64,000 bases of DNA, taken from contig DASUAH010000034.1 in NCBI GenBank assembly GCA_035763885.1, forward strand, positions 104 to 64,103, read 5' to 3'. Below the pieces are notes generated by a model. It had not been told where the DNA came from and searched no databases. It was given only the letters and a program-made list of their open reading frames with translations. The position numbers and the translations under genes are program-made. Each line of letters starts with the position of its first letter. The first letter of the stretch is position 1. Origin of the DNA: Gemmatimonadales bacterium (GTDB lineage: Bacteria > Gemmatimonadota > Gemmatimonadetes > Gemmatimonadales > GWC2-71-9). Shown piece by piece: positions 2,357-6,014 of the stretch.

Positions 2357-2623
2357 ATGGGCTTCCTGTGGACCTTGATCATTGGTCTGGTCGTTGGTGC
2401 GATCGCCAAGCTGCTCATGCCCGGAAAGGATCCGGGCGGCTTCATTGTGACGATGCTGTTGGGTGTGGCAGGTGCTCTGCTTGCCGGCTTCCTGGGCCGC
2501 GCCCTCGGCTGGTACGCCGACCCGGGTTCGGGTCCCGGGATCATCGCGTCGGTGCTCGGCGCGATGCTGCTGCTGTTCCTGTACCGGCTCTTCGTGGGTC
2601 GCCTCAGGACGACGGTTCCCTGA
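2357..2623 (+). CDS. GlsB/YeaQ/YmgE family small membrane stress protein
   Basis: MGFLWTLIIGLVVGAIAKLLMPGKDPGGFIVTMLLGVAGALLAGFLG is typical of the family. GGAGGG Shine-Dalgarno lies 5 nt upstream of ATG 2357. Confidence 0.85.
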   Translation: MGFLWTLIIGLVVGAIAKLLMPGKDPGGFIVTMLLGVAGALLAGFLGRALGWYADPGSGPGIIASVLGAMLLLFLYRLFVGRLRTTVP

Positions 2624-2627
2624 AGAT

Positions 2628-2683
2628 GAGTGAGAAGTAAGAAGTGAGAAGACCTCTCACTTCTCACTTCTTACTTCTCACTC
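2628..2683. terminator. perfect 24-bp inverted repeat (bidirectional terminator candidate)
   Basis: GAGTGAGAAGTAAGAAGTGAGAAG (2628-2651), 8-nt loop, then its exact reverse complement (2660-2683). It fills the 61-nt gap between the convergent stops at 2623 (+) and 2685 (-). No U-tract on either side. Confidence 0.6.
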
Positions 2684-2684
2684 C

Positions 2685-4418
2685 TCACACGACCTCCAGC
2701 CTGGCCGCCCGCCCCGCGCTGCCGGGGTGCACCTGCCGTGCCAGTGCCCCGAACTGCTCCGGGTTCAGGCTCTGGTATCCGTCGCTCAGCGCCTTTGCCG
2801 GGTCCGGGTGGACCTCCACGATCAGACCGCACGCTCCGGCCGCGAGCGCCGCGACGCTCAGCGGGGCCACCAGCGACGCGATGCCGGCGGCGTGGCTGGG
2901 ATCAACGACCACCGGCAGATGGGTCCGCTCGCGCACCAGGGCCACTGCGTTGAGGTCGAGGGTGTGCCGCGTCGCCCGCTCGAACGTGCGGATGCCCCGC
3001 TCGCAGAGCACCACGTGGGGATTGCCCTCCGCCAGGACGTACTCCGCCGCCATGAGCCACTCCTCGACGGTGGCGCCGGCGCCCCGTTTGAGCAGGATCG
3101 GCTTGCCGCTCCGGCTCGCCGCGCGCAGCAGCGAGAAGTTCTGCATGTTCCGCGCGCCGATCTGGAGCATGTCGGCGAAGTGGGCGACCACCGGCACCTC
3201 TTCCCAGCTCAGCACCTCGGTGACCACCGGCAGTCCGGTCCGCTCGCGCGCCTGCGCGAGGTAGCGGAGCCCCTTCACCCCGAGACCCTGGAAATCGTAC
3301 GGCGAGGTCCGTGGCTTGTAGGCGCCGCCCCGGAGCATGTCGCCGCCCGCCTGCGCCACCACCTGCGCGGTCTCCAGGATCATCGCCTCGCTCTCGACCG
3401 AGCACGGCCCGCCGATGAGCACCGGCTGCGGGCCGCCGAAATCGAGGTGGCCGACCCTCACCACCGTGCCCTCCGGATTCCGGCGGCGATCCACCAGCGG
3501 CACATCCGGCTTCTTCCCGTGGTGGGCCGGGGTGGGAACGGGCGTCGCGAAACGGAGCGCGCCGTCCGGCCAGGCCTCGTAGCTCCCCAGCACGATGACC
3601 TGAACCGCCAGAGCCTCGACCTCCTCCAGCGCTTCGGCCACGCGCGGGTCCGTGGCCGCGCCGGCCACGTCGACGTAGAAGCGATAGGTCCACGGCTTGG
3701 ACCGCTCCGGCCGGGACTGCAACGCGGTCATGTTTACGCCTCGGGCGCCGAACGCCTGCAGCGTGAGCGCGAGCATCCCGGGCTTGTGGTCCACGCAGGC
3801 GATGATCGACGTCTTGAACGGCACCCCCGGATTCTGCGGCAGCGGCGCGGCGGCGCGCGAGAAGGCCAGAAACCGGGTCTGATTGGTGGGATCGTCCTCG
3901 ATCCGCTCGGCGAGGGGGACCAGGCCATGCGCGTCCGCCGCATGTCGCGCGGCGATCGCCGCCCACGCCGGGTTGGCCTCGCGCGCGACGATTTCCGCGC
4001 TGCCGGCGGTGTCCCACGCGCTCACCAGTTCGGCGTCGGGCAGGTGCTTCCCGAGCCAGATCCGGCATTGCCCCAGCGCCACGGGGTGCGAGAGCACGCG
4101 GCGGACCTGCGCGAGGTCCGCGCCGGGCAGTCCCATCAGGGTGTGATGGACCGGCAGCAGGATCTCGTGGGTGAGCCGGAGCTCCCCGTCGCCGAACGCC
4201 TCGTGTAGCAGGTCGTAGGTGGTGGTCACCGATCCGATGAGCGAGTTCTCGATCGGCAGGATGCCCGCATCGGCGCGGCCCTCCCGCACGGCCGCGACCA
4301 CGTCCTGCACCTCGCGGCAGGGTACCGGCTCGAGCTCGCGCCAGCGCCGCCGCGCGGCTGCCTCGCTGAAGGAGCCGACGGCTCCCTGAATTGCTACGCG
4401 CATCGGGGTGTGCTCCAT
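2685..4418 (-). CDS. bifunctional prephenate dehydratase (PDT+ACT) / 3-deoxy-7-phosphoheptulonate (DAHP) synthase type I-beta fusion
   Basis: The N-terminal ~290 aa look PheA-like ([16 protein letters not shown]...[12 protein letters not shown]; ESRP-type ACT region [18 protein letters not shown]). The C-terminal ~280 aa look AroF/KdsA-like ([15 protein letters not shown]...[13 protein letters not shown]...LLKRG...VDPSH). An alternative start is ATG 4403. Confidence 0.9.
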
Positions 4419-4424
4419 GGGGTG

Positions 4425-4466
4425 GAAAAAACACGACGCCCCGCCGGCAAGGCCCGGCAGGGCGTC
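4425..4466 (-). terminator. intrinsic terminator / attenuator hairpin directly upstream of the pheA-DAHPS start
   Basis: Minus-strand RNA GACGCCCUGCCGG-GCCUUG-CCGGCGGGGCGUC gives a 13-bp stem with one G-U, followed by GUGUUUUUUCC. It ends 6 nt before ATG 4418. Confidence 0.7.
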
Positions 4467-4498
4467 GAAGGGTCCGTTCTGGGGTCAGGCCTGCGCGA

Positions 4499-4573
4499 CT
4501 ACTCCCCGAACCGGACGCGTCGAGCCGCGCCGGAGGCGGTAAAGTAGAAGAACCAGTACGCGCGCATTGCCAT
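4499..4573 (-). CDS. 24-aa aromatic-rich leader peptide MAMRAYWFFYFTASGAARRVRFGE
   Basis: ATG 4573 to TAG 4499 on the minus strand. Six consecutive aromatic codons (Y W F F Y F) lie between the promoter-like element and the terminator, upstream of an aromatic amino-acid biosynthesis gene. Confidence 0.6.
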   Translation of the reverse strand: MAMRAYWFFYFTASGAARRVRFGE

Positions 4574-4581
4574 GATCCGGG

Positions 4582-4610
4582 AGTGTACCCGTCGCCGCGC
4601 CGGCCGTCAA
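4582..4610 (-). promoter_or_regulatory. sigma70-like promoter TTGACG-N17-TACACT for the leader/pheA-DAHPS transcript
   Basis: -35 at 4610-4605 and -10 at 4587-4582 on the minus strand, with exactly 17-nt spacing. The leader ATG begins 9 nt after the -10, so the transcript is near-leaderless. Confidence 0.5.
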
Positions 4611-4650
4611 GGCAGGGGGTAGTCCAAAGTCCGGCGCCCCGCCGCCGTCG

Positions 4651-4656
4651 TATAAT
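4651..4656 (+). promoter_or_regulatory. perfect TATAAT -10 box upstream of the DUF3187-like gene
   Basis: TATAAT is rare at this GC content and lies in the divergent intergenic region. No convincing -35 was found. Confidence 0.3.
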
Positions 4657-4664
4657 TTGGGAGA

Positions 4665-5678
4665 GTGTTCCCATCGCCACGCCCGCTGCCGGAGACCCGC
4701 GTGCATCCCTTCACGAGCGGCCGACCCGAAGCCGTCATCGTCGCCTGCTGCCTGGCGACCGCTGCCCCGGCACGAGCACAGGGGCTCCCACCGTGGGGCC
4801 CGATCAACCCGGCCGCCGGGTCGCGCAGCGGACTGTACTTTCAGCCCACCGTGGATTCGGCGCCGGGCCGATGGCGGGCGGCGGTCTCCGTGGACTACGG
4901 CAGCGCGATCGAGTACAACCTCCCCGCCGTGCGGCCGAGCTACCTGCTGGACGTCGAGCTCCTGCGGGTCAACCTGGCGGTCCAGCGCCAGCTCGGCCCG
5001 CGCACCTTCGCGCTTGCCGAGCTGCCCCTGCTCGGGGCGTACGGCGGGTTCCTGGACGGGTTCCTCAAGTGGTACCACGACCTGCTCGGCGTCCCGATGC
5101 CGGAGCGGGATCTCCGGCCGAACAACGCGTTCGCCTACGAGCTTACCCCGCCCAACGGCGTGCAGGTGACCCGGGAGCAGTCGGACCTCTTTATCGGCGA
5201 CCTGCGACTGGGCGCGGCGTACCGGCTCACGCCGGACCTGCAGACCGTGCTCTCGGTCACGTTCCCCACCAGTACGGGGCCTGCCGGGTACGGCCGGGGA
5301 ACCCTTTCGCTCAGCTCGATCAACACCGTGCGCGTGCCCTTCGCGTCCCGGTTCGTGTACGAGGGGAGCCTGGGCCTCGGGGTCACGCCCAGCCACGGAG
5401 AGACGGCGGAGTTTCAGCGTGAGGTCTTCCTGGCGGCGACCTCCGGACTCCGGTTTCGATTCTGGGGGCGCCAGTCGGTCTTCGTGAACTTCCTGTATCA
5501 CTCGCCGTACTATGACGGGGTCGCCCTGCCCGCGCTCGACCAGCGTGAACTGTCGCTCGATTTCGGCTGGATTCTCGCAGCCAGCCACGGGCGCGAATGG
5601 CGGCTGGGGATGGTGGAAGACCTGGAGCCGAGCGGGCCGGGAATCGATCTGGTATTTCGGGTGGGGGTGAGCTTCTAG
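4665..5678 (+). CDS. putative outer-membrane beta-barrel protein (DUF3187-like)
   Basis: Signal-like AVIVACCLATAAPARAQG, alternating beta-strand pattern and C-terminal ...VFRVGVSF. A more likely start is GTG 4701, preceded by GGAG at 4691. The family call is from memory only. Confidence 0.65.
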   Translation: MFPSPRPLPETRVHPFTSGRPEAVIVACCLATAAPARAQGLPPWGPINPAAGSRSGLYFQPTVDSAPGRWRAAVSVDYGSAIEYNLPAVRPSYLLDVELLRVNLAVQRQLGPRTFALAELPLLGAYGGFLDGFLKWYHDLLGVPMPERDLRPNNAFAYELTPPNGVQVTREQSDLFIGDLRLGAAYRLTPDLQTVLSVTFPTSTGPAGYGRGTLSLSSINTVRVPFASRFVYEGSLGLGVTPSHGETAEFQREVFLAATSGLRFRFWGRQSVFVNFLYHSPYYDGVALPALDQRELSLDFGWILAASHGREWRLGMVEDLEPSGPGIDLVFRVGVSF

Positions 5679-5697
5679 CTAGCCCATAGCCCATCGC

Positions 5698-5943
5698 TCA
5701 TCGCCCACTGCGCACCTCAAAGAGGAACTGTTCCATCTGCTGATAGAGGAATTCCTTCGCCTGGGCGTCGCGGAGGTTGAGCGCGTAATGGTTGATGAGC
5801 TGCTGCTGCAACTTCAGCCAGTCGCCCCAGCAGACGCCGCAGATCTGCTCGAACGCGCGGCGGCCCAGGTCGGTTGGAAACGGCTGGAACGCCATCGAGG
5901 CCCGATCCTGACCGCAGCGCACGCAGTGCACGGTGCTCGCCAT
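5698..5943 (-). CDS. yggX: Fe(2+)-trafficking / oxidative-damage protection protein YggX
   Basis: 81 aa. VHCVRCGQD...FQPFPTDLGRRAFEQIC...W..WLKLQQQLINHYALNL...EFLYQQMEQFLF matches the YggX pattern. Confidence 0.85.
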   Translation of the reverse strand: MASTVHCVRCGQDRASMAFQPFPTDLGRRAFEQICGVCWGDWLKLQQQLINHYALNLRDAQAKEFLYQQMEQFLFEVRSGR

Positions 5944-6014
5944 GAGCGAATCTTACCATTGCCGGCGCGGGTGTGACAGCGCGCACCGCAGGCGCGTCTC
6001 GGTGGGTATAACGG

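Follow-up and report, generated by a model that had tools for sequence, protein, structure and literature searches.

In a 64-kb stretch of Gemmatimonadales DNA with 71% G+C (the window), a leader region precedes a gene encoding a fusion of prephenate dehydratase (PDT), an ACT domain and DAHP synthase, and this region most probably (about 0.8, judged from sequence evidence) acts as a ribosome-mediated, leader-peptide transcription attenuator that controls this single gene. All elements of the attenuator lie on the minus strand. An earlier note on this DNA had proposed such a device, and the proposal is supported by four hallmarks that the window shares with 52 related loci: a short open reading frame (ORF) with cognate codons, an intrinsic terminator, an overlapping antiterminator whose pairs covary, and a downstream gene of the matching pathway. 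The family comprises at least 53 members, which always precede a PDT-ACT-DAHP synthase gene, and both the aromatic codon run and the hairpin are conserved upstream of the orthologues at the 52 related loci, as the note's reading anticipated.

The comparisons rest on two sets of sequences. The genome set consists of the window and 21 loci of Gemmatimonadales or Gemmatimonadaceae, from genomes assembled from metagenomes (22 sequences); the closest protein relatives, with 72-93% identity, all belong to these two groups. The metagenome set comes from a contig scan with a 19-base leader motif, which yielded 80 loci, 31 of which are recognised by a covariance model of the antiterminator. The same parts follow each other in the same order at all 21 related genome loci, namely promoter, ATG, leader ORF, UUU-ACC, GC-rich region, terminator, GGAG and ATG. 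The 31 metagenome loci share the layout of the leader, and their gene begins with MR[VI]AIQG in the 27 whose start is readable after the U run.

Leader peptide, promoter and regulated gene

The leader ORF (4573-4499) consists of 24 codons and the stop codon UAG (4501-4499), encodes MAMRAYWFFYFTASGAARRVRFGE, and contains the six consecutive aromatic codons that had been reported for it, UAC UGG UUC UUC UAC UUU (Tyr-Trp-Phe-Phe-Tyr-Phe; 4558-4541). Such a run is no chance event, because aromatic codons make up only about 6% of the codons in eight genes of the window. Orthologous ORFs of 24-30 codons are found at the 21 genome and 31 metagenome loci, those of the related genomes having 26-29 codons, of which 3-6 are aromatic. 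The length of the run differs among loci in steps of whole codons, and Tyr, Trp and Phe interchange within it, resulting in YWFFYF, YWFLF, WFFGYF, WFYFFF, FGFFF, FFFFSF and other variants. It is closed by a near-invariant UUU-ACC (Phe-Thr; 4543-4538): all 22 genome leaders close the run with UUU, 21 of them continue with ACC, and in the alignment T73-T75 and A76 are invariant and C77 and C78 nearly so. With a share of 14% of the Phe codons in the same eight window genes UUU is rare, and its invariance may reflect either a slow codon at a critical position or a constraint imposed by pairing between UUUACC and GGUAG.

Several features point to selection on the leader reading frame that goes beyond selection on the RNA alone, since the spacing of the ATG is kept, UUU-ACC lies in every case in the reading frame of the ATG even though the two are separated by 8-13 codons, length changes involve whole codons, and aromatic codons are exchanged for other aromatic codons. 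The frame is also open as far as the apical region of the antiterminator stem. Together, the runs of the 22 genome leaders contain 107 aromatic codons (73 for Phe, 19 for Tyr and 15 for Trp); each leader has 2-5 Phe codons, and six leaders, mostly of a Gemmatimonadaceae-like clade that lacks Trp and Tyr codons, contain Phe codons only. This composition suggests that Phe is the core signal, which fits the prephenate dehydratase half of the regulated enzyme, and that the window's clade has added Trp and Tyr to it. The mixed Tyr/Trp/Phe sensor of the earlier note therefore describes the window and part of the family; it does not extend to the family as a whole, where Phe is the invariant signal.

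The promoter named earlier is present, with a -35 box TTGACG (4610-4605), a 17-nt spacer and a -10 box TACACT (4587-4582). It is the sole sigma-70-like site within the 3.6 kb from 2400 to 6000, where shuffled sequences lead one to expect 0.1, and the arrangement TTGACN-N16-18-TAnnnT-N4-9-start codon occurs a single time in the whole window. The TTGAC of the -35 box is invariant in the 22 aligned loci and visible in nearly all 31 metagenome loci, while the T, the A and the last T of the -10 box are invariant across the 22-sequence alignment, the relatives having hexamers of the TAnnnT type at the equivalent position (TAGGTT, TACGTT, TAGCGT). The 21 related genome loci display TTGACA, a spacer of 17-18 nt, a TAnnnT-type -10 box, 5-8 nt and an ATG; two related loci have an additional in-frame ATG directly after the -10 box. 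The -10 box and the leader ATG are 8 nt apart in the window and, in most relatives, 5-8 nt apart, which places the A of the ATG 6-9 nt past the hexamer in most loci and 9 nt past it in the window. The leader ORF has no Shine-Dalgarno sequence and no room for one. From this promoter geometry, the mRNA of the leader peptide is predicted to be leaderless or nearly so, an idea that had been raised before and that agrees with the conserved spacing of 5-8 nt.

The regulated gene was identified correctly in the earlier note: its long ORF contains the Pfam domains PDT (residues 8-189), ACT (205-268) and DAHP_synth_1 (329-561), and also matches the NCBIfam models for Bacillus-type DAHP synthase and for prephenate dehydratase; the DAHP synthase part is of type I-beta. 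Its start was placed at the ATG at 4418, from which the longest ORF extends, and has to be revised. The proteins of the relatives all begin with MR[VI]AIQG, encoded by ATG CGN GTN GCN ATY CAR GG, and their ATG lies 4-9 nt past an invariant GGAG, the Shine-Dalgarno sequence of the structural gene (4416-4413 in the window; G200, G201, A202 and G203 of the 22-sequence alignment). The fusion gene thus probably starts at the ATG at 4403 (MRVAIQG) and spans 4403-2685, and the first five codons of the longest ORF are probably untranslated. Beyond 2685 the genes are oriented convergently, which limits the regulated unit to this one gene.

Terminator and antiterminator

The predicted intrinsic terminator is a hairpin of 14 pairs, 12 of them G-C, with the loop GCCUUG (4467-4434; -32.8 kcal/mol), followed by TGTTTTTT. 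Its U-rich tail UGUUUUUU occupies 4433-4426 and ends in the T6 run at 4431-4426. The terminator and U6 of the earlier note are accordingly present, with a stem of 14 rather than 13 pairs and with boundaries that differ from the 4466-4425 given there. A hairpin and a U run are found at 22 of 22 genome loci, the hairpins of the relatives ranging from -11.5 to -33.4 kcal/mol. That the hairpin serves as the terminator of another gene was considered and rejected, the upstream gene being divergent (DUF3187, plus strand from about 4665); the overlapping minus-strand ORF of 367 aa at 4485-5588 has no Pfam match.

The competing structure, whose exact pairing could not be settled by eye, was resolved by folding. 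Since equilibrium folding of the complete leader cannot show a switch, we used truncated transcripts and estimates of refolding barriers, and exposed the antiterminator by folding the transcript up to the terminator loop, i.e., without the 3' arm of the terminator. In the minimum-free-energy fold of this transcript, 4534-4504 pair with 4484-4453 in one long interrupted stem of -43.6 kcal/mol. The 5' strand lies in leader codons 14-23 and consists of a basal (CCGGCGC.GGC), a middle (UCGA) and a distal segment (GUCCG.UUCGGGG), and the 3' strand reads CCCC.AGAACGGAC..UCGA.GCC.UGCCGGG. The basal helix is formed by 4534-4525 with 4462-4453 (CCGGCGC.GGC with GCC.UGCCGGG), the middle helix by 4526-4523 with 4474-4471 (UCGA with UCGA), and the distal helix by 4516-4504 with 4484-4472; the last corresponds to the pairing GUCCGGUUCGGGG / CCCCAGAACGGAC of the earlier note, and both of the competing pairings named there occur in the computed folds. 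A small apical hairpin opens at the last base of the UAG stop. Because the 3' strand contains the whole 5' arm of the terminator as its last 14 nt (4467-4454), antiterminator and terminator are mutually exclusive.

The same stem is the minimum-free-energy fold of all 22 genome sequences when the 3' arm of the terminator is left out (-42 to -52 kcal/mol), and for 11 relatives its stability is far above that of dinucleotide shuffles (z -2.9 to -5.7). Compensatory changes were sought in 52 sequences (48 distinct), realigned to the antiterminator covariance model that was built from the hand-mapped structure, with slid pairings and 500 shuffles as controls. Among the 48 distinct sequences, 82.8% of the antiterminator cells are paired (35-47% when slid), 14 pairs show changes on both sides (3-8 when slid), and 66 cells have such changes (5-23 when slid). 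The covariation score of 0.129 compares with at most 0.037 for slid pairings and was reached by none of the 500 shuffles; the count made on the 22 genome sequences agrees with this picture. The covariation that the earlier note proposed to look for in related genomes is thus found at 14 pairs of the antiterminator. The middle helix is the most informative one, as all four of its pairs show compensatory changes, while the basal helix is almost invariant and so uninformative in this respect. RNAalifold applied to plain MAFFT alignments recovered the terminator and a self-hairpin of the leader and missed the antiterminator, because MAFFT misaligned the 3' strand of the latter.

The copy in the window is one of the more divergent in the family. 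It reaches 50 bits with the covariance model (4543-4452), compared with 68-100 for most relatives, and combines the shortest leader (24 codons) and the longest distance between -10 box and ATG (8 nt) with GGGGAGUAG in place of GGUAG.

Ribosome position, mechanism and rival explanations

The 5' strand of the antiterminator starts about 7 nt past the last aromatic codon and lies wholly within the leader ORF, with the stop codon atop the stem. When the ribosome was modelled as a mask of 28 nt placed at each codon along the leader, an A site on the aromatic codons did not disturb the antiterminator stem, and with the A site on later codons the pairing of the 5' arm of the terminator dropped in 20 of 21 relatives and in the window. 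In the latter, the pairing probability of this arm is 0.8 for codons 2-10, 0.5-0.6 for codons 11-23, and 0.8 again for the last sense codon and the stop codon. In the model, a stalled ribosome would permit the antiterminator and a translating ribosome would remove its 5' strand, which is the classical logic of attenuation.

A further structure may act as an anti-antiterminator (4547-4499). In the folds, CCGGCGCG/CGCG-UCCGG (4533-4511) forms a hairpin that is closed by CUACUUU.CCG (4547-4537) with CGG.GGAGUAG (4508-4499), and this structure appears in the full-length minimum-free-energy fold and in the nascent-leader folds of most relatives. Before the 3' strand of the antiterminator is made, the leader tends to form a self-hairpin in which CCGGCG.GGC pairs with GCC.CGUCCGG, closed by UUUACC with GGUAG. 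The conserved UUU-ACC is the 5' side of the proposed closing helix, where it pairs with GGUAG or GGAGUAG; in the Phe-only clade, the Phe codons pair, by eye, with GGGAGAAG or a GAAGCC segment near the end of the ORF. The pairing potential of the self-hairpin is 79.7%, compared with 34-49% for slid pairings. To pass from the self-hairpin into the antiterminator, the RNA has to cross a barrier that, estimated with findpath (a heuristic, with no kinetic simulation), has a median of 14.3 kcal/mol without a ribosome and of 6.6 kcal/mol with a ribosome on the aromatic codons; in the window, this barrier falls from 27.4 to 12-16 kcal/mol. In this model, the decrease weakly supports a role of the self-hairpin as anti-antiterminator.

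In the mechanism that we propose, transcription would start at the leader AUG (4573) or within 1-2 nt of it, and a ribosome would bind the 5' end with no need for a Shine-Dalgarno sequence. If Phe-tRNA is plentiful, and in the window also Tyr- and Trp-tRNA, the ribosome would pass the aromatic codons and traverse codons 13-24 to the UAG atop the stem. The 5' strand of the antiterminator would then be occupied while the polymerase makes 4467-4426, the 14-bp terminator would form, and transcription would stop at the U run. If aromatic tRNA is scarce, the ribosome would stall on 4558-4541, just upstream of the antiterminator, where it would also mask the UUUACC that otherwise helps to lock the 5' strand in the self-hairpin. 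The bases 4534-4504 could then pair with 4484-4453 and capture the 5' arm of the terminator, so that the polymerase would read through into the gene.

A number of observations weigh against this interpretation. At equilibrium the complete leader prefers the terminator at every position of the ribosome mask in most sequences, a preference shared by many attenuators, and the decision of the switch must therefore be kinetic. Without a ribosome, a transcript that ends before the 3' arm of the terminator thermodynamically prefers the antiterminator. Covariation of the self-hairpin does not exceed that of the slid controls. The alignment used for covariation was fitted to the structure under test, which biases the counts towards that structure. 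The antiterminator of the window itself is no more stable than shuffled sequences (z = -1.22; 24 of 200 as good), and its significance would come from conservation and not from energy. Finally, the 8 nt that separate -10 box and ATG in the window are rather many for a strictly leaderless start.

The rival that comes closest, although it is still quite improbable, holds that the switch is real and responds to a ligand or an RNA-binding protein (a riboswitch, or a TRAP- or PyrR-like protein), with an incidental or untranslated ORF. The long, conserved and covarying antiterminator would be expected of such a device as well, translation of the leader is deduced from its sequence, and the pyrimidine-rich aromatic codons join predicted pairings, so that constraints on the RNA could contribute to their conservation. 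However, the ATG keeps a fixed, short spacing to the -10 box and stays in frame with UUU-ACC in essentially all 53 loci, the run changes in length by whole codons, and the aromatic-for-aromatic substitutions (UAC, UGG, UUC) do not preserve base pairing, while the target gene makes exactly these amino acids. In addition, an Rfam cmscan of 3900-5200 with E-values up to 10 returned four chance-level matches and no riboswitch, amino-acid leader or T-box family.

There is slightly less to be said for the view that the peptide acts through its amino-acid sequence, either as a TnaC-like arrest peptide that senses a free amino acid or as a small protein acting in trans, as known elsewhere for peTrpL (PMC7298713). 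The C-terminal part of the peptide does look conserved (A-G-A-A-R-x-P-S-G-x-G), but these codons fall on the 5' strand of the antiterminator stem, where changes are compensatory in the RNA, and the tail of the window peptide (ASGAARRVRFGE) departs from the family consensus and yet keeps the pairing. We give the same small weight to control at the level of translation or mRNA stability, in which translation of the leader would affect expression without termination at the hairpin. Function of intrinsic terminators in the Gemmatimonadota is an assumption, and leaderless polycysteine uORFs (upstream ORFs) of mycobacteria have been reported to attenuate the expression of operonic genes (bioRxiv 10.1101/834739); a U run is nevertheless conserved after the hairpin at 22 of 22 genome loci, and the GGAG of the structural gene lies 10-20 nt past this run, free in the predicted folds. 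Attenuation by a ribosome translating the leader remains the preferred reading.

Related systems and further observations

The mechanism proposed for the Gemmatimonadales leader is the same as in trpL, pheL and hisL. In Escherichia coli, the Phe-codon run of pheL controls the prephenate dehydratase gene pheA (Rfam Phe_leader; PMC3082878), and both systems share a Phe-codon run in a short ORF, a terminator, a competing antiterminator and a gene for prephenate dehydratase. The pheL start is led by a Shine-Dalgarno sequence, whereas the Gemmatimonadales leader has none; the ORF of the latter also spans the whole 5' strand of the antiterminator, stops apically and mixes in Trp and Tyr codons. The nearest functional analogue is aroR-aroF of Corynebacterium glutamicum, where a leader with Phe-Tyr-Phe lies upstream of the aroF operon, and Phe limitation stalls ribosomes and raises read-through (Neshat et al., 2014, as summarised in PMC11802643). 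Consecutive aromatic residues precede a DAHP synthase gene in both; the Corynebacterium system differs in belonging to the Actinobacteria, in a shorter run (3-6 aromatic codons in the Gemmatimonadales) and in regulating a plain aroF instead of a PDT-ACT-DAHP synthase fusion, and the likeness is drawn from the descriptions of the two leaders.

Leaderless leader peptides are known from Deinococcus deserti, in which AUG is the mapped 5' end for 13 of 14 predicted attenuation leader peptides and the transcript of the trpEGD leader starts 1 nt upstream of AUG (PMC4007540). These leaders precede genes for amino-acid biosynthesis and tRNA synthetases (PMC4007540); their 5' ends were mapped experimentally, whereas the start in the Gemmatimonadales is deduced from promoter spacing, and the phylum is a different one. 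The leaderless polycysteine uORFs of mycobacteria are alike in that codon content senses an amino acid and controls the genes downstream (bioRxiv 10.1101/834739), but they sense cysteine and not aromatic amino acids.

A literature search revealed no report of attenuation, or of leaderless transcription, in the Gemmatimonadetes or in Gemmatimonas, and an earlier prediction is possible in the comparative survey of Lopatovskaya and colleagues (2010; cited in PMC4833913). The attenuator is a new and well-conserved case of a known type of regulator, in a phylum for which no earlier report was found, and is useful rather than surprising to specialists; leaderless leader peptides, and an attenuator before a DAHP synthase gene, have been described outside this phylum (PMC4007540, PMC11802643), which makes the finding less unusual. 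For the Gemmatimonadota, a widespread and little-studied phylum of soil bacteria, it would be the first well-supported cis-regulatory RNA for amino-acid biosynthesis. The 53 sequences with their covariation are a ready seed for a new RNA family, and they add to the evidence that leaderless leader-peptide attenuation extends past the Proteobacteria, Actinobacteria and Deinococcus.

The fusion gene is not confined to the Gemmatimonadales. Full-length matches to the PDT-ACT-DAHP synthase protein, at 56-61% identity, were obtained from Anaerolineae, Spirochaetes, Syntrophomonas, Desulfotomaculum-type and WOR-3 sequences (loci L028, L034, L036, L042, L052, L054, L055, L059, L061, L065, L068 and L072-L074). 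At 14 loci of Spirochaetes, Firmicutes, Anaerolineae and WOR-3, the antiterminator covariance model has no match upstream of the fusion gene, and the element is therefore lineage-specific in sequence and structure. Within the fusion protein, the ACT domain directly precedes the DAHP synthase barrel and, by analogy, might confer Phe feedback on both enzyme activities; other type I-beta DAHP synthases have N-terminal regulatory domains.

In Chloroflexota/Limnocylindria-type genomes, DAHP synthase genes are likewise preceded by short aromatic leader ORFs, at about 10 loci (L030, L033, L039, L043, L046, L049, L060, L066, L077 and L079), some 330-445 nt before the DAHP synthase match. Examples are MSTFFFYRTPA, MSHYFYFRCPA, MTTYFWYPSPA and MERIFFFYRYPA. 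They follow a TTGACA-N17 and a -10-like box (e.g., cACACT for MSHYFYFRCPA) with the ATG 7-8 nt later, which is a leaderless geometry, and a long hairpin and a strong terminator, GCAGAGGC..GCCTCTGCTTTTTTGTT, come after them. At an Anaerolineae locus of the fusion gene the leader is MKGYWSFFYAYFYGAPKAAVASR, with a terminator, and two Syntrophobacter-type loci have CFWCWW leaders; these three lie at L028:2427, L047:2588 and L067:2445. The Gemmatimonadales covariance model has no match in L028, the sole such locus on which it was run. We regard it as possible, if rather doubtful, that these cases belong to a broader, uncatalogued pattern of leaderless aromatic attenuators before type I-beta DAHP synthase genes in several non-classical phyla. 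If this is true, a 5'-terminal AUG would load the first ribosome as the RNA emerges and so provide a built-in coupling of transcription and translation without a dedicated pause hairpin. Control of the entry into the shikimate pathway by the charging of aromatic tRNAs may be common, given the similar leaders before DAHP synthase genes of Chloroflexota.

Around the attenuator, the leader region and the real genes are overlapped, in other frames or on the opposite strand, by long ORFs (367-592 aa; 4485-5588 and 2902-4680 on the minus strand, 2727-4208 on the plus strand); these are the usual spurious ORFs of a genome with 71% G+C and do not conflict with the attenuator. The divergent DUF3187 gene has a -10-like hexamer 5-9 nt before its start codon at 17 of 22 loci, as found with a permissive search pattern. 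In the window (plus strand, 4646-4670), TATAAT (4651-4656) is followed after 8 nt by a GTG at 4665, and the relatives have TATCTT, 5-8 nt and an ATG or GTG, after which the N-termini resemble signal peptides. This geometry suggests that leaderless mRNAs are perhaps common in these Gemmatimonadales.

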